Positions 7,063-43,085 of a stretch of 43,085 nt of DNA are shown piece after piece. Location of the stretch: positions 1 to 43,085 of the IMG/VR virus record IMGVR_UViG_3300031673_000137. One strand, 5' to 3'. The number at the start of each line of letters is the position of its first letter. The first letter of the stretch is position 1. This stretch comes from a virus. The notes beneath the pieces were generated by a model that had not been told where the DNA came from, ran no database searches, and worked only from the letters and a program-made list of their open reading frames with translations. Both the position numbers and the translations under genes were made by a program.

Positions 7063-7090
7063 AGTATAACAGGTAAATTATTCCTGTCAA
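7063..7090 (-). promoter_or_regulatory. Sigma70-type internal promoter P2 (TTGACA-16-TATACT) with palindrome ACAGG-N9-CCTGT in the spacer
   Basis: The -35 is the reverse complement of 7085-7090 and overlaps the polymerase stop codon. The -10 is the reverse complement of 7063-7068. The palindrome is 7069-7087. The roughly 50-bp block 7042-7091 is homologous to 4790-4840. Confidence 0.55.
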
Positions 7091-9192
7091 CCTTTCCGGT
7101 AGCGATAGCCTTGGAACCCCGCTGCGGCGAGGGGCATATCCAGCGCCCAAGGCGGATTCGCGGCGAGCAATTCGCTGAGTTGGGTTTCGTTGAACTCGTC
7201 GGTGTCGGGGGCTTCGCAGATAACCTCATCGTGGACTGTTAGCACAATTTCATACCCGACCGCTTCGATACCGGGCATCGCATCTTTCAGGACGTGGCAC
7301 GCGCAAGATTGGGTGATGTTTTCCGCGCATTTCCCCCCGTATATGCCGACGCGCTGCCATTGCCGAGTGTATTGGTTCACGCCCATATAGGACAGCTTGC
7401 GCTTGTTGGGTTCGTTCTCACCTTCGGCGCGGGGGGATGGGTAGCATAGCGATCTCCCGCCCGGCATGATGACGCGCAGCCAATTACCGGAGCGAACAAA
7501 CGTGCAGCGCCGTGCCGTGAACTTCTTGCCCGCGTTGTTGGTTGCCTTAAAGAAGGCGGATTCCAGTTCATCCCAGAACGCTTCGATATTCGGATGCGCT
7601 GCGCGCCACATCCTTTTGAGGGCATCGCAAACCACGAACCCTTTTTCGGATAGACCGAACGTGCTGCGTTTTTTCTTCACCGAATAATCATAGAACTTTT
7701 TTGCTTCGAGTTTTGCCCAATCAGGCAGCGTGCCGAAAGCGGCTTCGGCTAGTTCTTCGAGGTCAATGTTGTACACCAAAGCGAAGGTGAGGAACGCGCC
7801 CACACCTCCTTGAAATCCTAGCGCCAATTCTTGAACTTTTCCGACTTGTCTCTGGTCGCCATCATCAACATCTTCCGGCTCTATGCCAAAGCTCTTGGCG
7901 TAGGCCAGCTTGTAAAGATCGTGCCCTGTGCCCGCATCGAAGTCGCGGAACGCTTGCAGCTTCCACTCCTCCCCTGCCAGCCAAGCCAGTATACGCCCTT
8001 CGATGTTCGACAAGTCGGCGACCACGAACTTCTTACCGCGAGCCGGGATGAGCGCAGCGCGAGCCAGCCCCGCCGTTGCTTCCATCACGTTATCGAAGAA
8101 CAGGGGCGCTGCGCCCGCCTTTACAGCCTCTACGGAGAACTCCCAATCTTTCGACAGGTACTTGGGTGGCCTGAACATATTTTGCGGCTGCACGGTGCGC
8201 CCACCCCATCGCCCCGTGCGGCTCGCCCCGTCGAATTGCAGCAAGCCCCGCGCGCGCCCGTCATCGTTCACCGCTTTGAGCATCGCCTTGTACTTCGACG
8301 TTGAACCCATCGAGGCTTGCATCCGGTTGACGAGCAATTCCTTCATCGCGGGAGGCAAGTCGGGATCGTTGATACGGCGCTCAAGAGTCGAGGCTTGCAA
8401 ATCGGGCAAGTCGATGCCGTATTCGAGAAGCAGATGCGCGAGCAGCTTATCGCGCTTGGTGGCACTCTCTACTTCGCCGTTGGTCAAGGCGTGGCACTCG
8501 CTCGCGAGTCGCGCCTTGGCCTCTTCCGCAGCGGCTATGGCGGCGTGTGCGAGGTCGAGATCAATGAGGACACCTCGATCATTGATCTTCTGGTCGAGAT
8601 GCCAATGGCTGAGTTCCTGCGACGGGTAGTTCCAATCCGGTATCTTGCGATCCACGATTCGCATAGAGGTGATGTCGCCCTTCGCGTATTCGAGGAACCG
8701 CGCCCACTCCGCCGGATGGGTGGCGGCAGTTGCGCGGCGCAACTTGGTCTTTGCTGGGCGCGGTTTGCAGAATAGTTGGATGAGCGCCTTACCGTCCTTT
8801 TGTTTGGCTACATCTTCGGCTAGGTTGAATATCTCGCAGGTCTTGCCGAGCGCGCCAGGTAGCGAGTGCGCCAATGCCTTGACCATCGTGTCTCGCCAGC
8901 GGTGTATCGCTTCGCCCGCCTGAACGAGAATCGGATTCGTGTTGCGCGCCAAGCGAAACACGCTCCGGTCGAACATGCTGTTCTGGAAGTTGATGAGAAT
9001 GGAATCGTCTAGCAGGGCTTCGGCGAGGTCGTCAGGCATCGGCTCGCCAGCGGTCAAGTCCCACACGGATACCGGATCGTCGTCAAGCGCGTAGGTGAAC
9101 AGCATAATCTCCGCGTCTTGCGCGTAGCGGTACGTACCGTTCTTGATCGGCGTGTCGCTATAAGTTTCGAGGTCGCCCCAGAGTGTTTTCAT
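7087..9192 (-). CDS. DNA polymerase, family A, with N-terminal 3'-5' exonuclease domain (701 aa)
   Basis: Exo motif GDLETYS. Pol motifs ADLSNIEGRILAWLAGE, RQVGKVQELALGFQGGVGA and LTVHDEVICE. Confidence 0.9.
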   Translation of the reverse strand: MKTLWGDLETYSDTPIKNGTYRYAQDAEIMLFTYALDDDPVSVWDLTAGEPMPDDLAEALLDDSILINFQNSMFDRSVFRLARNTNPILVQAGEAIHRWRDTMVKALAHSLPGALGKTCEIFNLAEDVAKQKDGKALIQLFCKPRPAKTKLRRATAATHPAEWARFLEYAKGDITSMRIVDRKIPDWNYPSQELSHWHLDQKINDRGVLIDLDLAHAAIAAAEEAKARLASECHALTNGEVESATKRDKLLAHLLLEYGIDLPDLQASTLERRINDPDLPPAMKELLVNRMQASMGSTSKYKAMLKAVNDDGRARGLLQFDGASRTGRWGGRTVQPQNMFRPPKYLSKDWEFSVEAVKAGAAPLFFDNVMEATAGLARAALIPARGKKFVVADLSNIEGRILAWLAGEEWKLQAFRDFDAGTGHDLYKLAYAKSFGIEPEDVDDGDQRQVGKVQELALGFQGGVGAFLTFALVYNIDLEELAEAAFGTLPDWAKLEAKKFYDYSVKKKRSTFGLSEKGFVVCDALKRMWRAAHPNIEAFWDELESAFFKATNNAGKKFTARRCTFVRSGNWLRVIMPGGRSLCYPSPRAEGENEPNKRKLSYMGVNQYTRQWQRVGIYGGKCAENITQSCACHVLKDAMPGIEAVGYEIVLTVHDEVICEAPDTDEFNETQLSELLAANPPWALDMPLAAAGFQGYRYRKG

Positions 9193-11597: not shown

Positions 11598-12269
11598 TTA
11601 TTCTTTAATTCGGTTCTTAGGCTTCACAAAAACCAAAAAGTACGAATGGTTTTTTCGAGCATGGACTTGCTTCTTCATCCGGCTAACTACAGGCCGGTTG
11701 TTGCGCACCACAACAAATATATCCTTTGCGTAGTACCCCCGCGCCACCATCGCGTTGATAATTTCTACATGCGTCAGCCATTGCTTGTTCGCGCTCACTT
11801 CATCTTGGCACTTTACTATCAGCACGCCGCTCGACTTCAAAACACGATCCGCTTCCGCGCATCCTTCTAAGTACAGATTTAGAATCGCTGCGTGGTATTT
11901 GCCCGCCCCGCTACAGCGTTGCAGCCCGTAGTAATCCCCAAAGGCTTGCTGCCCTTCGCTGTACGCCGTACCGCGCATCGCACCTTCCATGTAGGGAGGG
12001 TCTAGCACCAGAGCGTCCATGCTTGCGTCAGGGTAAGGCAACGCGCGAAGATCAACCCCATCTTGTATATCTGTCGCGTGCAGTTGGTACGCTCCTGCGG
12101 GAACCTTGCGCCAAAACACCCCTTTACCGTAAGTTACGTCGGCCACCGCTCCCCCTTGTTTAACGTGCAGCGCCAACAGCGAGGGGAACACATCCGCATT
12201 ACCTTTGATGTGCGCGCTGAGAATCAAATCGGTAGTCGCTTCACCTCCCTGTATGCGCTTTGCCTTCAA
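11598..12269 (-). CDS. DNA methyltransferase (DPPY motif; probably N6-adenine)
   Basis: [10 protein letters not shown] catalytic motif preceded by an ADVTYGKG AdoMet-like motif. Confidence 0.7.
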
Positions 12270-14299: not shown

Positions 14300-14329
14300 A
14301 CTATAGCATTAATAAATTTAGCTTGTCAA
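14300..14329 (-). promoter_or_regulatory. Leftward early promoter (TTGACA-18-TATAGT)
   Basis: The -35 is the reverse complement of 14324-14329. The -10 is the reverse complement of 14300-14305. Drives 14263 and the replication operon. Confidence 0.55.
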
Positions 14330-14350
14330 ATAAATTTATTATTGCTATAG
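14301..14350. repeat. 20-bp inverted repeat (CTATAGCATTAATAAATTTA / TAAATTTATTATTGCTATAG) separated by 10 bp
   Basis: The arms 14301-14320 and 14331-14350 differ at one position. Each arm contains one of the two -10 hexamers. Confidence 0.85.
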
Positions 14351-14351
14351 T
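14323..14351 (+). promoter_or_regulatory. Rightward early promoter (TTGTCA-17-TATAGT)
   Basis: The -35 is 14323-14328 and shares 5 bp with the leftward -35. The -10 is 14346-14351. Drives the Cro-like gene at 14383. Confidence 0.55.
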
Positions 14352-14382: not shown

Positions 14383-14574
14383 ATGAGAAGTGAACTGATC
14401 GCCAAAGTAGTTAAACATTTTGGATCGCAGCGCGCGTTGGCAAGGGCGATGTGTGTTACGGAGGGCGCGGTTAGCCATTGGGTGAAAGCAGGTGTGATAC
14501 CCACAGGGAGTGCCGTGAAGATCGAACGCGCGATGCGCGGACGGGTGAAGGCCATCCACCTATCGGCGGAGTAG
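14383..14574 (+). CDS. Cro/YdaS-like HTH transcriptional regulator (63 aa)
   Basis: FGSQRALARAMCVTEGAVSHWVKAGVIPTGSAVKIERAMRGRV matches the YdaS/Cro-type HTH pattern. First gene of the rightward operon. Confidence 0.75.
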   Translation: MRSELIAKVVKHFGSQRALARAMCVTEGAVSHWVKAGVIPTGSAVKIERAMRGRVKAIHLSAE

Positions 14575-14579
14575 CCGCT

Positions 14580-15005
14580 ATGCACTATCTGTATAAGCAA
14601 TTCGATAAGTGCGGGACGTTGCTTTATGTTGGTCGAACGTGTGATTGGCGCGTAAGAACATACGACCATCGCCAATTTTCAGAGTGGTGGAGGCGGGTTA
14701 CGAGAATTGAGATTGAGAGCTTTGAGGATATAACTTCGGCCATAAAAGCTGAAAAACTAGCAATTCAATCCGAAAAGCCCGTTTGCAACACCATTCATAA
14801 TCAGAAAAAAATACCACACATCCGAGCACCTAATTCAAAGAATGTACATACGCCAAAGTTTTTTCTGAAAAAATATCGCGCCGGAGAGTCGGTTGCGGAA
14901 CTTGCGCTCCGTTACGGCGTAACCCCTCGACGTATATCTCTTTTGATTCGGCAAGCGATGCGGGAGCAGGTGAAGGCGACTAACCTCGATTGTGTAGCTC
15001 ACTAA
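14580..15005 (+). CDS. GIY-YIG domain protein with C-terminal HTH-like segment (141 aa)
   Basis: HYLYKQFDKCGTLLYVGRT..R...H and E..AIQSEKPVCN resemble GIY-YIG motifs. The C-terminal ESVAELALRYGVTPRRISLLIRQ is HTH-like. Confidence 0.55.
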   Translation: MHYLYKQFDKCGTLLYVGRTCDWRVRTYDHRQFSEWWRRVTRIEIESFEDITSAIKAEKLAIQSEKPVCNTIHNQKKIPHIRAPNSKNVHTPKFFLKKYRAGESVAELALRYGVTPRRISLLIRQAMREQVKATNLDCVAH

Positions 15006-15099
15006 GGAGTAGTTATATGGGAAAAGAGAATGGTGCAATGAAGCGTAACGAGATGTGCGGCGCGTGTGCGCGGTGTGAACTTGCGAAGGGGAAATAGAG

Positions 15100-15486
15100 A
15101 TGGCCGAGTTTTACCTGCAAGATAGCCGTGGATACGTCGGCAATGACGTGCTCTGGTGGGCGAAAGATGGCAAGGGTTACACCACTGATTTGAGCAAGGC
15201 ACATGTGTATTCTCAAGAGGATGCGGTGCGCCAGCACGAATGCCGCGAGACAGATATTCCTTGGCCGAAAGAATACATTGACGCGCGCACCCGTCCTGCC
15301 GTTGACATGCAGTACGTCAAGCGTGATGAGGCGTTGGCTGGAACGGGGATCGTTTTGCGTAAGCCGCAGAAGCCGAAGAAGCCGAAGAGGGATGCCCTCA
15401 AGTGCTGTCAGTGCGGTAGGTTCTTGAGCGAAGAGCAACTTTGGGGTGGAGAATGCCCGAAATGCGGATGCGACAACCGCCCTTAA
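15100..15486 (+). CDS. Hypothetical protein with C-terminal zinc ribbon (128 aa)
   Basis: CCQCG...CPKCGC at the C-terminus after a basic KPQKPKKPKR linker. Confidence 0.55.
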   Translation: MAEFYLQDSRGYVGNDVLWWAKDGKGYTTDLSKAHVYSQEDAVRQHECRETDIPWPKEYIDARTRPAVDMQYVKRDEALAGTGIVLRKPQKPKKPKRDALKCCQCGRFLSEEQLWGGECPKCGCDNRP

Positions 15487-15513
15487 ACAAGTAGCCCACT
15501 AGGGAGTAATTCT

Positions 15514-17514
15514 GTGCAAAAAGAAAATAGCGGCGCGACAAGCGCCGACTGGGCGCACTTCGCCGTAATGCTCGGCCTCACTGCCGACTTGCTGCCCGTG
15601 GTGAGCAACCAGGATGCCGTGATTGATCCCGCGTCGAGCATGAAGGGGTTGGGTAAGACCCCCTCACGGTACAACGGTTCGCGCCGCGCTGTTGGCTTCT
15701 CGAAGTGGACGCAGTACCAAGCCACGGATGCCGACATCACGAAGTGGATGCGCGAACAGGACTACGGTATCTGTCTGCAAACCCGCGAAGTGCGGGCGCT
15801 GGATATTGACGATGAGGAACTTGCGGGAAAGATAAGCGAGTTCATTGTCGGGCAGCACGTACTGCCCGAGCGGTTCCGCGAGAATTCTCGCAAGTGTCTG
15901 TTCGCTTTTCGCCTTGAAGGCGACTTCACCAAACGCAAATTCAAAACAGCCAGCGGCATTGTCGAATTCCTTGCAAACGGACAGCAATTCGTGGCTTGCG
16001 GAACCCACACGAGCGGCTCACGTTATGAGTGGTTCAACGGATTGCCGGACGGCATCCCCGAACTCACCGCCGAACAGTTTGAAGCCCTCTGGGCAGAACT
16101 CGTAAAGCAATTTGCTGTTGAGGACTCCGCGACTACCGCAGCCGCTACGAGCAAGCACTCAAAGCTCTCCGAAGCCGCGAGTAACGATCCGGTCGCACAA
16201 CAACTCATCGACCTCGATGTGGTCGTCAAAAATGAGCGCGACGGACGGCTCCACATAACCTGTCCATGGGAGGCCGAGCATACCTCGGCGAGTTCCGAAT
16301 CGGCTACTACCTACTGGCCTGCCCATACTGGCGGGTTCATCCACGGGCACTTCGATTGTAAGCACGCCCATTGCGAAGCCCGTACCGACGGCGAGTTCAA
16401 AGCCGCCTTGGGTATTGTCGATGCCGACTTGATGTCCGACTTCGAGGTGCTGGCAGACGAGCGGCCCGCCGACACTGACGAACCCGCCAAGGCGATGCGC
16501 TTCCAGCCTATCCACGGCGACGAGTTCGCGCAGCTTGTTGCGACCGAGTGGATTATCAAAGGCGTGCTGCCCAAAGCCGAGTTGGGGGTCGTGTTCGGCG
16601 AGTCGGGTTCGGGCAAGACGTTCAAGGTGCTGGACATCGCCATGGCGGTCGCCACCGGTACGGAGTGGCGGCAGCGGGCGGTGACTCAGGGCGCGGTGGT
16701 GTACATCGCCGCAGAAGGCTCTGGCGGCTTCAAGAAGCGGCTGCGCTCCTATGCGCAACACCATGGCCTCGACTTGTCCGATGTGCCGCTATACGTCATC
16801 CCGGCGGCCCCCAACCTGTTGCAGAAAGCCGATGCGCTTGACGTGGCTAAGGCCGTGCTATCGCTGGGTGTTAAAACGTCCTTGGTCATCATCGACACCT
16901 TGGCGCAAACCACGGCGGGCGGGAACGAGAACAGCGGCGAGGACATGGGCCTCGCCTTGTCGCACTGCAAAGGCATCCACAAGGCCACAGGCGCGATGGT
17001 GCTGCTGGTACATCACTCAGGCAAGGATACCAGCAAGGGCGCGCGCGGGTGGTCGGGGCTGCGCGCGGCTTGCGATGTGGAGCTTGAGGTGACGCGGTTC
17101 GACCAAGAGCGCATCCTGGCACTCACCAAGCAGAAGGACGGCGACGACATGCTTGAGTTCGGGTTCAGGCTCACCACGGTATCGTTGGGCTTCGATTCGG
17201 ATGGCGACGAGATCACCTCATGCGTCACCGAGCCGGTAGATGGCACGCAGCGCAAAGCGCGAGGCACAGGCAAGAAGCTGGGGCACAACGAGAGGCTGGT
17301 GCTGCGCACGATGGGTGAGATGATGTCGGGCGAGGGGGAAGGCGCGCAAGTGGGCAGGCTGATCGAGCTTGTCTCGGCGCAGATGTTGCCTCCCGATGAA
17401 GGCAAGAAGGACAGGCGGCGCGAGATGGCGCACAGGGCGATTCAGGCTTTGCAGGATGCGGAAAAGGTGGCGGTCAATGATCGCGGTGAACTATTTGTGA
17501 TGGGGGATGAGTGA
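15514..17514 (+). CDS. Bifunctional primase-polymerase / RepA-like (RecA-fold) helicase (666 aa)
   Basis: The N-terminal half is Prim-Pol-like (ICLQTREVRALDIDD). The C-terminal half has Walker A GESGSGKT and Walker B SLVIIDTLAQ. GTG start behind a GGGAG RBS. Confidence 0.8.
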   Translation: MQKENSGATSADWAHFAVMLGLTADLLPVVSNQDAVIDPASSMKGLGKTPSRYNGSRRAVGFSKWTQYQATDADITKWMREQDYGICLQTREVRALDIDDEELAGKISEFIVGQHVLPERFRENSRKCLFAFRLEGDFTKRKFKTASGIVEFLANGQQFVACGTHTSGSRYEWFNGLPDGIPELTAEQFEALWAELVKQFAVEDSATTAAATSKHSKLSEAASNDPVAQQLIDLDVVVKNERDGRLHITCPWEAEHTSASSESATTYWPAHTGGFIHGHFDCKHAHCEARTDGEFKAALGIVDADLMSDFEVLADERPADTDEPAKAMRFQPIHGDEFAQLVATEWIIKGVLPKAELGVVFGESGSGKTFKVLDIAMAVATGTEWRQRAVTQGAVVYIAAEGSGGFKKRLRSYAQHHGLDLSDVPLYVIPAAPNLLQKADALDVAKAVLSLGVKTSLVIIDTLAQTTAGGNENSGEDMGLALSHCKGIHKATGAMVLLVHHSGKDTSKGARGWSGLRAACDVELEVTRFDQERILALTKQKDGDDMLEFGFRLTTVSLGFDSDGDEITSCVTEPVDGTQRKARGTGKKLGHNERLVLRTMGEMMSGEGEGAQVGRLIELVSAQMLPPDEGKKDRRREMAHRAIQALQDAEKVAVNDRGELFVMGDE

Positions 17515-17735
17515 TGGCGCTTAAAATTGCGGAAAGGCTGCAAGCGCGGCTGGCGTCCACAGGGTTAATCGTGGATGTTCCCAAACGTCAGTATACAGGG
17601 CATTGGCAACGCTCGGAAGGCGCGTGGTCTTGGTCTGCGCTAGTTACAGATCAATACTATGAGGTTGGCTCGCCGCACACAATGCGAGAATGCCTAAAGA
17701 TGTCAGATGAAGATTTTGCGCAGGCGGTTGAATAA
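17511..17735 (+). CDS. Hypothetical protein (74 aa)
   Basis: Coupled by overlaps to both neighbouring genes. Confidence 0.5.
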   Translation: MMALKIAERLQARLASTGLIVDVPKRQYTGHWQRSEGAWSWSALVTDQYYEVGSPHTMRECLKMSDEDFAQAVE

Positions 17736-18361
17736 TGGCGCTTGAAGCATATGAGATTCGCCGTATTGATTACCAGACCGCGATGCAGGTTGTGGTCGAA
17801 AATCACTACCTACATCGCCGTTGCCCTTGCACAAACGCCTTTGGTCTTTTTCTTGGGGATGAGTTGAAAGGCGTTGTGGTGTACGGTACGCCAGCGAGTT
17901 CGCCGTTGCGTACCGGGATCGCGGGCGCAGAAAATGCGAACAACGTGGCCGAGTTGACGCGGCTTTGGGTTTGCGATTCGGTTCCGCGTAACGGAGAGAG
18001 CTTTCTTATCGGGCGCACGGTGGCGCTCGCGGGTAAAGAGATCGTCGTGTCCTACGCGGAGATACAACAGGGGCACGTCGGCATAGTGTATCAGGCTACG
18101 AACTGGCTTTACACAGGGCTATCCGCGAAGCGGACGAACTGGACGGTAGAAGGGCTGGATAAGCACTGCCAGACGCTTGCGGACAAGTACACCGCGAAAG
18201 AGATTCGGGAGAAGTACGGCGACAAATTCAGCCTCCAAGAGCGCCCCCGGAAGCATCGCTACGTGTTCATCAACGCAAAGGGTCGGCACAGAAAAGAGTT
18301 GCTGGCAGCGTTGAAATACCCACTTCTACCCTACCCAAAAAGCGCAGAATCGCTCTGCTGA
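17735..18361 (+). CDS. GNAT-fold protein resembling the Mom family (adenine methylcarbamoylation DNA modification)
   Basis: NHYLHRRCP..AFGLF...LKGVVVYGTPAS...AELTRLWV...NGESFLI...VVSYAEIQQGHVGIVYQATNWLYTG matches my memory of Mom-family proteins. Not verified. Confidence 0.45.
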   Translation: MALEAYEIRRIDYQTAMQVVVENHYLHRRCPCTNAFGLFLGDELKGVVVYGTPASSPLRTGIAGAENANNVAELTRLWVCDSVPRNGESFLIGRTVALAGKEIVVSYAEIQQGHVGIVYQATNWLYTGLSAKRTNWTVEGLDKHCQTLADKYTAKEIREKYGDKFSLQERPRKHRYVFINAKGRHRKELLAALKYPLLPYPKSAESLC

Positions 18362-18556
18362 TGCGCCCCAAAACGCCTTCACGGCATTAAATTCGTCCCG
18401 CCACCGCGCGGGCGAGAGATGGCAATAGCTGTTCACATAAACGCTTGGGTATTCGATACCGACGTAGTAGAAGTATCCCTCCCCTTTCACTAGTTCAGCC
18501 GCGATCCCGTGGCGGCGCAATTCAGCATTGTATTTTGAAAGGCTGTTTAGGAGCAT
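18326..18556 (-). CDS. Hypothetical protein (76 aa), convergent with and overlapping the 3' end of the Mom-like gene
   Basis: GAGGTG RBS 7 nt upstream of ATG 18556. Own near-consensus promoter. 36-nt tail-to-tail overlap with 17735-18361. Confidence 0.6.
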   Translation of the reverse strand: MLLNSLSKYNAELRRHGIAAELVKGEGYFYYVGIEYPSVYVNSYCHLSPARWRDEFNAVKAFWGASAERFCAFWVG

Positions 18557-18581
18557 TTTGACACCTCAGTTTTGAAGCCGC

Positions 18582-18610
18582 AGTATAGGCAACGATTTCC
18601 GCTTTGTCAA
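18582..18610 (-). promoter_or_regulatory. Near-consensus sigma70 promoter (TTGACA-17-TATACT) for the 76-aa gene
   Basis: The -35 is the reverse complement of 18605-18610. The -10 is the reverse complement of 18582-18587. The spacer was counted as 17 nt. Confidence 0.65.
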
Positions 18611-18639
18611 GTAGCCAACCCACCTTTTCACAACCCGCG

Positions 18640-18669
18640 AGCCGCCGATTTATGGCGGCTTTTTCTTTT
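18640..18669 (+). terminator. Rho-independent terminator ending rightward early transcription
   Basis: Stem AGCCGCC / GGCGGCT with loop GATTTAT, followed by TTTTTCTTTT. Confidence 0.75.
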
Positions 18670-18673
18670 GCTA

Positions 18674-18709
18674 CTCGCAATTTATTACTTGTTGGTAATT
18701 ATTTGCGAG
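18674..18709. repeat. Imperfect 15-bp inverted repeat (CTCGCAATTTATTAC-N6-GTAATTATTTGCGAG)
   Basis: The arms are complementary at 13 of 15 positions. Lies immediately after the terminator. Confidence 0.7.
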
Positions 18710-18896
18710 TTCCCTATAGGTACACAAATAGGTTTTGAACCACAAAAGTGGGAGGAATAGTTTGCCTTATTTACGGTCAACCTATAGGTACATAAATTAC
18801 ACATAAATGGGCGATAAATGTACCGACAAGGCGAGTGACAGATACATTTTTACCACACACCAGCTCTGCTGGTGGGTTAAAAATGTACCAACGATG

Positions 18897-18926
18897 TGGA
18901 CTCAAAAGTGAAAAACCTGATATACT
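18897..18926 (+). promoter_or_regulatory. Extended -10 promoter (TGGACT-18-TGaTATACT) for the 18961 operon
   Basis: TG at 18918-18919, TATACT at 18921-18926. Lies 35 nt upstream of the AAGGAG RBS/ATG at 18961. Confidence 0.5.
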
Positions 18927-18960
18927 ATGCTTCTTACGGTAAAACTAAAGGAGCGCAAAA

Positions 18961-19263
18961 ATGGGCAAGCACACAAAAATTCGGTTACGTTCAGGTAACC
19001 ACGAACCAACAGGGCGATGGGCGCGCTTGTGCGACTTCAGCACGGCTGACGGAACCGGATGGGTGATTTACTCACGGCAGAACGGGGATCGCTATGTGGG
19101 TGTCAAGATCGCAGTGGTTGGCGAGATACCGGGCAAAGCGAATTACTGGATGACGTTCGACTTGAAACAGCAAAACCTGTTTCGGCAACATGCGGCGGAA
19201 CTACAACGCTATCGCCCTGAAGTTTTCAAGCTGGCGACGCAGTATCTCAAACTCTTCGCTTGA
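18961..19263 (+). CDS. Hypothetical protein (100 aa)
   Basis: AAGGAG RBS. First ORF after the control region. Confidence 0.6.
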   Translation: MGKHTKIRLRSGNHEPTGRWARLCDFSTADGTGWVIYSRQNGDRYVGVKIAVVGEIPGKANYWMTFDLKQQNLFRQHAAELQRYRPEVFKLATQYLKLFA

Positions 19264-19319
19264 CACACGGCAAAACATGCCTCACAATGCGCCAACTCAA
19301 CGAACCAAGGAACCAAACA

Positions 19320-19493
19320 ATGAAACCCGAAGAATTCAAAGCACTCCGCGAATCCCGCGAAGGTATGACGCAAGAACGACTAGCCGAACTGATGTCCTGT
19401 TCCGCCCGGACAATCCGCAACTACGAGAACGGCACCGGTAGCTTGCCGGATCGCGCCGTGAAGATGCTTGAACTGGTGCTCAAAGCGAAATGA
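19320..19493 (+). CDS. XRE-family HTH protein (57 aa)
   Basis: MTQERLAELMSCSARTIRNYENGTGSLP is a canonical XRE HTH. Start set at ATG 19320 behind AAGGAA. Confidence 0.7.
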   Translation: MKPEEFKALRESREGMTQERLAELMSCSARTIRNYENGTGSLPDRAVKMLELVLKAK

Positions 19494-19837
19494 GCGACAT
19501 AGCCCTCCAACTCCACAACGGTGTTAGCATATTCGTCGATAGCCAGACAGGTTGCTTTTCGACGAACGAATCGGAGACGCAGTGGACGCGCCTGCGCGAC
19601 TTGAAAGCGCACCTCGACAGCCGAATAACCGTGGATGAGCTGATCGCGATGACGGAGCGTAAAAGCTACTGGATAATTGGGGATAAAAAGCTGCACGCAA
19701 TCAGAAATTTAAAAGATTACACAGGCCGCTACATAATGTCTCGCGACGGGGCTGAACTACTCGGCTACCCGGTATTCCTCGACACGCAAGACGAAAACGC
19801 TCTTTCCTTTTTCACACCGGCGAGCACAATCCCATGA
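19490..19837 (+). CDS. Hypothetical protein (115 aa)
   Basis: ATGA overlap with the XRE gene. Confidence 0.55.
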   Translation: MSDIALQLHNGVSIFVDSQTGCFSTNESETQWTRLRDLKAHLDSRITVDELIAMTERKSYWIIGDKKLHAIRNLKDYTGRYIMSRDGAELLGYPVFLDTQDENALSFFTPASTIP

Positions 19838-20028
19838 GCGACGAGGTAGACGTGGCGAACGACTTGGCATACGCCTACGCCAACTCAGGAGTAGCCAAGG
19901 CTGCGTCGGAAGCCGCCAAGCCTATACCGACCTCACCCGTGTGCTTAGAATGCGGGGAAGGCACCGCAGGAGGCGCGAGATGGTGCTCCGCGAGTTGCCG
20001 CGACTACCACGAGATGCGCAACCGATAA
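19834..20028 (+). CDS. Small C4 zinc-finger protein (64 aa)
   Basis: CLEC-x11-C-x3-C. ATGA overlap with the previous gene. Followed by a strong terminator. Confidence 0.55.
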   Translation: MSDEVDVANDLAYAYANSGVAKAASEAAKPIPTSPVCLECGEGTAGGARWCSASCRDYHEMRNR

Positions 20029-42037: not shown

Positions 42038-43085
42038 GTTCTCCCGATTTCAAATTCGTAGCGCCCACCGTTATCACCGATGCGATGCTCACGTCGAGCA
42101 ACGTACCCGAAGCGGTAGCCGCAACCTACGCTGGCGGAACGACCTACGCGCTCGCGGATCGCGTCGGACTTGCCCCTGTTGACGGCGCGGCACAACTTAT
42201 TTACGAATCGCTATCCGCAGGCAACATCGGCAACCCACTCCCTGTCCCCCCGGCTACCGCGACGGCATTTTGGCGTTATGTTGGGAGTGTCTACCCTGCG
42301 TACTCCGCCGCCGTTACCTACGGACTCGGCGCGACAGTATCGAGCACATCAACCAATGTGCATGAGCTGTACGAATCGCTAGTCGCGGGTAATGTCGGCA
42401 ATGCGCTCACTGATGCTACGAAATGGCTTGATCTTGGTTCGACGAACCGCTGGGCGATGTTCGATCAGATCATGGCCAGCCAAACCACAAATGCGGAAAG
42501 CATTACGCTGGTGCTCGCACCGGGCGTACTGATAAATTCTGTTGTACTCGCCAATCTTATCGGCGGCAGTGTTCGTATCCAGCAGTCGATCAGCGGATAC
42601 GACCGAACTATTTCGCTTAATTCTCACGTTGCTGCGGATTGGTACGGCTGGTTCTACGACCCGCTGCTTACCAAGAGCGCGGTGGCGTTCATGGACATCC
42701 CGCCCTATCCAGCGGGTGTACTTACGATCACCATATCAGGAACTAACGGTACTGCCGGGTGCGGGGTTATCGTGCTCGGGCAGGCAACCTACATAGGCAC
42801 AACGTTAGCCAACCCGACCAGGGGGATCAATGACTATTCACGGATTATAGAGGACGCTTGGGGCGGTTTGGTGCTTGTGCCGGGGGGTTACTCTGCTACT
42901 TTGAGTGTCGAGGTATTTGTCCCGGAAGGGTACGAATCGCAAGCCGTGGCTTTACTCGCCAGCATCCGCGCTACACCAGTGATGTTTGTGGCGGGTGACA
43001 ACTTTGATGCCAGCATAGTTTATGGTATTCTTGGGCGAAACTGGACTGTACCTATGGCTGTAACGGGTAATATCGCCCGACTTGA
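42034..43085 (+). CDS. Tail tip / host-recognition-associated protein, 5' part (full gene 42034 -> junction -> 146, 356 aa)
   Basis: ATGA overlap with the previous gene. The frame has no stop up to the window end, which is why the ORF track does not list it. It contains two copies of a Y..G..V....YESL.AGN.GN.L motif. Confidence 0.7.
   Translation, partial: MSSPDFKFVAPTVITDAMLTSSNVPEAVAATYAGGTTYALADRVGLAPVDGAAQLIYESLSAGNIGNPLPVPPATATAFWRYVGSVYPAYSAAVTYGLGATVSSTSTNVHELYESLVAGNVGNALTDATKWLDLGSTNRWAMFDQIMASQTTNAESITLVLAPGVLINSVVLANLIGGSVRIQQSISGYDRTISLNSHVAADWYGWFYDPLLTKSAVAFMDIPPYPAGVLTITISGTNGTAGCGVIVLGQATYIGTTLANPTRGINDYSRIIEDAWGGLVLVPGGYSATLSVEVFVPEGYESQAVALLASIRATPVMFVAGDNFDASIVYGILGRNWTVPMAVTGNIARL
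42959..43085. repeat. Second copy of the 127-bp terminal overlap
   Basis: Identical to 1-127. Confidence 0.95.

Follow-up and report, generated by a model that had tools for sequence, protein, structure and literature searches.

What does the gene at 17735-18361 of IMGVR_UViG_3300031673_000137 do for the phage that carries it, and does it belong among the enzymes that hypermodify adenine in phage DNA? The record, a complete virus genome entry in IMG/VR, spans 43,085 bp, all of which was analysed (the window). The reading frame is open throughout, starts with ATG and encodes a protein of 208 amino acids (aa), here designated P0001, which a first-pass annotation had likened to the Mom protein of phage Mu on the strength of three motif blocks. 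All three blocks are present in P0001 (HYLHRRCPCTNAFGLFLGDELKGVVVYGTP, ELTRLWVCDSVPRNGES and VSYAEIQQGHVGIVYQATNWLYTG); only the spacing had been miscounted, with 8 rather than 6 residues from HY.H to FG and 7 rather than 3 from ELTRLW to N.ES, an error of no consequence.

Profile and structure comparisons placed P0001 almost certainly within the Mom family, which bears out the proposed family assignment. The Pfam model PF25680 (Mom protein family) matched with E = 1.8e-40 and a score of 139.3 bits, the gathering score being 27.1, and aligned residues 6-202 of P0001 with profile positions 2-202 of 202, and PHROG 1384, annotated as Mom-like DNA modification protein, matched with E = 5.4e-50. 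No other Pfam family, the GNAT families included, matched P0001 even at E <= 1, and the only NCBIfam match, to the XF1762 family, stayed below threshold (26.4 bits where 50 are required). When the PDB was searched by sequence with phmmer, the sole real match was 8bv8, the S124A structure of phage Mu Mom deposited as 'Methylcarbamoylase mom' (E = 4.9e-10). An AlphaFold2 model of P0001 built on 117 diverse homologs reached a predicted local distance difference test (pLDDT) value of 96.4 and a predicted template-modelling (TM) score of 0.90, and the two best Foldseek matches to this predicted model were again 8bv8, chains B and A (E = 2.8e-13 and 6.3e-13, TM 0.69-0.71, 207 aligned columns), followed by generic GNAT acetyltransferases at E ~1e-5 and TM 0.4-0.5. 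In the model a pair of helices (145-151 and 154-164) also separates strand 134-138 from strand 165-169, and this insertion aligns with the helix-turn-helix (HTH)-like insertion at residues 175-209 of Mu Mom, whose deletion abolishes Mom activity (PMC13219725).

The agreement with Mu Mom extends to the active site. In the numbering of the 241-aa Mu protein, which we use throughout (PMC7261163 numbers residues 10 lower), mutation has shown that H58, Y59, R111, S124, D149 and Y159 are needed for activity (PMC7261163, PMC13219725). These six residues align with H24, Y25, R76, S89, E109 and Y119 of P0001, so that five of the six are identical and the sixth, E109, is a conservative change from aspartate to glutamate; N123 was also noted among the catalytic residues of P0001. 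Across 119 family sequences the five identical columns held the same residue in 110 (H), 110 (Y), 118 (R), 116 (S) and 118 (Y) cases, and the Mu D149 column held D in 106 and E in 9, with E carried by P0001 and its closest relatives. Conservation in the family did not simply follow Mu, however, for the column of Mu R154 was histidine in 113 of the 119 sequences (H114 in P0001), which makes Mu the atypical member and places P0001 in the majority 'G-H-x-G' type.

The chemistry that these likenesses imply is best read from recent work on Mu. Mu Mom works after replication on double-stranded DNA (Silva et al., Nat Commun 2026, PMC13219725): glycine from Gly-tRNA(Gly) acylates the N6 of adenine, and the adduct so formed undergoes rearrangement on the base to give N6-carbamoylmethyl-dA (6-NcmdA), which shields the DNA from restriction (PMC13219725). 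This mechanism supersedes the acetyl-CoA/iron proposal of PMC7261163, and with it the first-pass description of the product must be amended: an adenine modification of the Mom type stands, but the 'methylcarbamoyl' wording, which goes back to PMC7261163, does not, since the Mu product is N6-carbamoylmethyl-dA made via Gly-tRNA(Gly) (PMC13219725). From the family, the fold and the conserved catalytic set we infer that P0001 catalyses a reaction of this type with a host tRNA. By homology with Mu Mom, P0001 would be a stand-alone Mom-family GNAT enzyme that binds duplex phage DNA after replication, flips an adenine out and moves an aminoacyl group onto its N6, the likeliest donor being the glycine carried by host Gly-tRNA(Gly). 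Rearrangement of this adduct would yield N6-carbamoylmethyl-adenine, whose bulk is expected to block many restriction endonucleases. The sequence context of the Mu modification is SAS, and 24.7% of the adenines in the present genome fall in SAS. ARAGORN found no tRNA genes in the phage genome, and the donor would therefore have to be a host tRNA. P0001 is probably an active, bona fide member of the Mom family, and we consider it likely that it carries out the Mu-type, tRNA-dependent modification of adenine in DNA, with donor, product and sequence context inferred by analogy with Mu.

Several observations weigh against so direct a transfer from Mu to P0001. The two proteins are only ~25-29% identical, and we know of no His-containing member of the majority clade that has been assayed. 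P0001 carries His114 in place of Mu R154 and a glutamate at the mostly aspartate position of Mu D149, has Q111 at the position of Mu R151, and has Q14 and D142 at the positions of W48 and W181. In Mu, R151, W48 (dimerisation) and W181 are all needed as well, the R151A protein having no detectable activity (PMC13219725). P0001 also lacks the first ~30 residues of Mu Mom, including the basic segment 11-19 that is implicated in tRNA binding and whose loss lowers Mom activity (PMC13219725). Finally, the strong avoidance of palindromes in the genome (described below) implies that the protection given to the DNA by modification alone is incomplete, and suggests that whatever modifications exist give no blanket protection. 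The three missing Mu residues are less telling than they appear, because their columns vary across the family and thus mark the Mu clade rather than the family: in a comparison of 13 proteins from cultured or related phages, only Mu and the Mu-like Pseudomonas phage GEC_PNG14 had R151, and in the 119 sequences arginine was outside the six commonest residues listed for the column.

The same departures, taken with the near-invariant histidine, count in favour of P0001 being a Mom-family enzyme with an outcome unlike that of Mu, using another aminoacyl-tRNA donor, recognising another sequence context or modifying another target base, and Silva et al. point out in their Discussion that co-substrate and substrate cannot be predicted from structure alone (PMC13219725). 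Against this, the six residues found important in two independent studies of Mu are conserved, the predicted fold of P0001 is that of Mu Mom, insertion included, two randomly chosen metagenomic Mom homologs (Mom Homolog A and B, IMG taxa 3300002484 and 2872672955) were reported active in the same in vivo assay (Silva et al., PMC13219725), and we found no positive evidence for a product other than that of Mu. We regard a different outcome as unlikely, while giving it real weight, and give about the same or slightly less weight to the P0001 clade as a whole differing chemically from Mu Mom. Slightly less likely again in our judgement is that this clade, whose members occur in siphophages and jumbo phages unrelated to one another, might install a hypermodification not yet described.

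That P0001 is a GNAT with some substrate other than DNA, whether an acetyl-CoA-dependent acetyltransferase of proteins or small molecules or a TacT/AtaT-like enzyme acetylating charged tRNA, appears improbable to us. The core fold is that of a GNAT, 144 PDB chains, mostly acetyltransferases, matched P0001 at E <= 0.001, homologs such as gp63 of Microbacterium phage BarnCat and those of Arthrobacter phages are labelled 'acetyltransferase', and Mu Mom itself was reported to bind acetyl-CoA in the earlier study (PMC7261163). The match to Mom nevertheless lies far above the generic GNAT level (TM 0.7 versus ~0.5; E 1e-13 versus 1e-5), PF25680 has no competitor among the Pfam GNAT families, the Mom-specific helical insertion is present, R76 corresponds to a Mom-specific arginine that is not conserved across GNATs (PMC7261163), and the 'acetyltransferase' labels were assigned automatically rather than from assays. 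A decaying remnant or a chance reading frame, in favour of which only the three missing Mu residues can be cited, is effectively refuted by a fully open frame matched by the profile from end to end, by more than 2,500 homologs (the best 120 of them 73-87% identical) and by synonymous positions that are saturated while the protein is conserved.

The Mu-type adenine-modifying enzyme that we favour for P0001 belongs to a family that is widespread and has already been annotated in hundreds of phages. A tblastn search found homologs of P0001 in 293 cultured-phage records from many host genera, many of them labelled 'Mom-like DNA modification protein'. Among metagenomic proteins, a word-indexed search returned 2,504 sequences at E <= 1e-5, the best 120 at the identities given above, and an exhaustive search of representatives of clusters at 50% identity returned 2,516 clusters at E <= 0.001; more than 8,000 Mom homologs had already been mined by Silva et al. 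(PMC13219725). In 185,579 representative prokaryotic genomes, a close relative was present on three contigs only, all from metagenome-assembled genomes, at 67-77% identity. Between P0001 and its homologs in other phages, identity at third codon positions was 29-42% against a protein identity of 67-85%, so that synonymous divergence (dS) is saturated; together with the conserved protein, this indicates an old gene under strong purifying selection and not a recent transfer of DNA. The first-pass view that finding a Mom-type gene in a siphophage of this kind merited documentation does not hold up in the face of this distribution, as the 293 records with homologs include the 43-kb Salmonella siphophage VSiP and phage BarnCat. 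The architecture is on record, and P0001 is a routine annotation rather than a discovery. Fused forms also occurred in metagenomic data, one combining AP2, HNH_3 and Mom (P0123) and another ParB_N and Mom (P0213), and several other family members of 400-520 aa had extensions of 200-300 aa that matched no Pfam family.

The window encodes a second candidate DNA-modifying enzyme, P0271, and the separate DPPY methyltransferase that had been proposed at this second locus is genuine. In addition to the motif LVLDPPYM, P0271 scored above threshold against PF01555 (N6_N4_Mtase; 30.3 bits against a cut-off of 26.7, over profile positions 2-110 of 221 only) and was matched from end to end by phrog_24333, a DNA methyltransferase family (E = 8e-64). 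Among cultured phages its closest relatives are methyltransferases of mycobacteriophages, with 52% identity to gp62 of phage Wheeler ('DNA methyltransferase'). Homologs were found in only nine phage records, none of them characterised, and no solved structure related to P0271 was found. A DPPY motif favours the N6 of adenine as target. It is plausible that two base modifications would then be present on the phage DNA, P0271 adding simple methyl marks beside the product of the Mom-like enzyme. Pairing of a Mom gene with a methyltransferase gene may recur: on the uncultured phage contig L004 mom directly follows a gene for a 533-aa N6_N4 methyltransferase unrelated to P0271 (L004:4319-6615), and in Polaribacter phage P12002L (L016:1-1069) a DNA methyltransferase gene is located immediately upstream of the Mom gene.

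The composition of the genome points to restriction as a force in the life of this phage. Palindromes of 6 bp occurred 270 times in the whole genome against ~700 expected, and among hexamers that were entirely absent, palindromes were strongly over-represented (17 of 64 palindromic hexamers versus 20 of 4032 non-palindromic ones); the missing palindromes included CCGCGG (25.6 expected), ACGCGT (12.9), CGGCCG (12.4) and TTCGAA (11.9). The hexamers CGCGCG, GCGCGC, TCGCGA, TGCGCA and TTGCAA were depleted far less than the remaining palindromes (observed/expected ~0.5 to 0.9), and depletion was seen also in the 4-bp palindromes CTAG (0.47), GGCC (0.55), CCGG (0.60) and GATC (0.65). Avoidance of palindromes is a classic mark of selection exerted by type II restriction enzymes, reportedly described by Sharp in 1986 and by Rocha and colleagues in 2001. 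The pattern fits an anti-restriction role for both enzymes, and the combination of a Mom-like gene, a methyltransferase and extreme palindrome avoidance fits life under heavy restriction pressure.

Table 1. Genes and candidate expression signals around the Mom-family gene and in the leftward replication operon (positions in the window).
Feature	Position	Strand	Details
Family-A DNA polymerase	7087-9192	-	~57% identity to Bordetella phages BPP-1, BMP-1, BIP-1 and Yersinia, Escherichia, Acinetobacter phages
DPPY-motif DNA methyltransferase (P0271, 223 aa)	11598-12269	-	Leftward replication operon; LVLDPPYM at residues 87-94
Sigma-70-like promoter (candidate)	14323-14351	+	TTGTCA-17-TATAGT, 10/12, with TG; consensus match only
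GIY-YIG-like endonuclease	14478-15005	+	Rightward operon, first gene
PHROG 2457 protein	15100-15486	+	Rightward operon
PrimPol + AAA_25 primase-helicase	15514-17514	+	PF09250, PF13481; phrog_906, phrog_1156, phrog_2850
74-aa open reading frame (ORF)	17511-17735	+	No Pfam or PHROG match; overlaps primase gene and mom
Mom-family GNAT gene, encoding P0001 (208 aa); predicted to modify adenine in DNA	17735-18361	+	PF25680, phrog_1384, 8bv8
Convergent 76-aa gene	18326-18556	-	phrog_9154 (function unknown), E 3e-10; last 36 nucleotides (nt) overlap mom 3' end
Promoter-like site of 76-aa gene	18610-18582	-	TTGACA-17-TATACT, 11/12
Intrinsic-terminator-like hairpin and T-run	18639-18661	+	9-pair stem, 6 GC, then TTTCTTTT; downstream of mom

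The placement of P0001 as the last gene of a rightward operon agreed with the first-pass annotation, the operon being bounded by a promoter-like site and a terminator-like hairpin (Table 1). A leftward promoter-like site (14329-14300) stands back to back with the rightward one, and no other promoter-like site was seen on the plus strand between the latter and mom, including the sequence immediately upstream of mom. The stop and start codons of successive genes overlap as TGATG (primase gene and 74-aa ORF) and TAATG (74-aa ORF and P0001), which suggests that the primase gene, the 74-aa ORF and mom are translationally coupled. Because mom would be coupled in this way to replication genes, it is likely to be expressed together with the replisome, in early or mid infection, and without the Com/Dam/OxyR/C circuit of Mu. 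The 74-aa ORF contains a single cysteine and hence does not encode a Com-type zinc finger, and a comparison of Mu Com with the six frames of the genome gave no match at E <= 1, although an empty result of this kind is weak evidence. With no Com homolog found and no promoter-like site immediately upstream, the regulation of mom must differ from that in Mu. The convergent 76-aa gene could damp mom through transcriptional interference, which would be relevant because unregulated mom is potentially lethal to the host (PMC7261163); this gene is not kept beside mom in other phages.

A conserved mom operon was considered and rejected, the neighbours of mom being unrelated between the record, BarnCat and the phage loci L005 and L004. 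The small ORFs upstream of mom in the record, BarnCat and L005 showed no similarity to one another, and the downstream convergent ORFs of the record and L005 were likewise unrelated. Two sets of repeats lie beyond the operon. A 31-nt element occurs twice (18699-18729 and 18767-18797), 68 nt apart, in the non-coding gap between the terminator of the mom operon and the next rightward genes, each copy with CCTATAGGTACA around the palindrome CCTATAGG, and a second repeat pair of 20 nt is found at 18808-18827 and 18873-18892. Both sets are candidate operator or promoter elements.

The phage as a whole had been called an HK97-like siphophage with its own replisome, which is a fair label. The structural and lysis genes comprise the small and large terminase, portal, HK97-type major head protein, endolysin and holin, the tail genes include those for a 154-aa major tail protein and a 1660-aa tape measure, with no sheath, and the leftward replication operon encodes the family-A DNA polymerase, a helicase, a Gp2.5-like single-stranded DNA-binding protein (SSB), a DUF2800/PD-(D/E)XK exonuclease and the methyltransferase. 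An exact direct terminal repeat of 127 bp occupies 1-127 and 42959-43085, leaving a unique genome length of 42,958 bp. The major capsid protein was closest to that of Streptomyces phage Chymera (48.5%); since the polymerase and the capsid have their relatives in different phages, the genome is a mosaic. The host is possibly proteobacterial, for which the relatives of the DNA polymerase provide a hint and no more. Megablast of positions 15000-20000 against cultured phages gave no match, and relatives of the primase-helicase sought in viral contigs were not found.

With this record, the very large number of phages that have a Mom-family gene grows by one uncultivated member, and the analysis supplies a functional annotation for two of its genes, the Mom-like enzyme and the DPPY methyltransferase. 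To our knowledge, Mu Mom is the only family member with a published mechanism. Yet Mu is an outlier at several active-site positions, and the majority of the family, P0001 included, carries histidine at the position of Mu R154. This His-containing clade is abundant, is subject to strong purifying selection and passes between phage backbones that are not related, so that the chemistry of even one of its members bears on whether 'momylation' applies across the family.

Set beside Mu Mom (8bv8; PF25680), P0001 shares the Pfam family, the predicted GNAT fold with a helical HTH-like insertion, the active site of H, Y, R, S, D/E and Y, and a stand-alone gene at the end of an operon. It differs in that Mu mom is a separately regulated late gene, whereas the P0001 gene is probably coupled to replication genes in a non-transposable siphophage. 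The closest homolog in a cultured phage is BarnCat gp63, with 52% identity over 90% of the protein, and the two loci share an order of DNA primase/polymerase, a small ORF overlapping the start and then the Mom-like gene, within a replication module; in contrast, BarnCat has an actinobacterial host, a 61.5-kb genome and D at the position of Mu D149, and its Mom-like gene is directly followed by that for DNA polymerase I. The Guernseyvirinae siphophages Salmonella virus VSiP (gp41, 'Mom-like protein') and FSL SP-031 ('Mom') encode proteins with ~33% identity to P0001, and resemble the record in being ~43-kb siphophages that encode a DNA polymerase of their own and have a Mom-family gene within the replication module; in VSiP this gene abuts the DNA polymerase gene. 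The residues H, Y, R, D, H, Y and N are shared as well, but VSiP gp41 has Thr, not Ser, at the position of Mu S124, and the C-terminal half of the Guernseyvirinae proteins is of another length. Nearest of all are proteins of uncultured phages, among them P0005 (85% identical), from the 37.5-kb phage L004 with ERF, SSB and lysozyme genes, and P0035 (76% identical), from a 186-kb contig with T4-like UvsX, family-B DNA polymerase and DnaB genes. Members of this clade share with P0001 the signature SYAEIQQGH or SYAEIEQGH and a length of 203-210 aa, whereas neither their backbones nor their flanking genes are related to those of the record.

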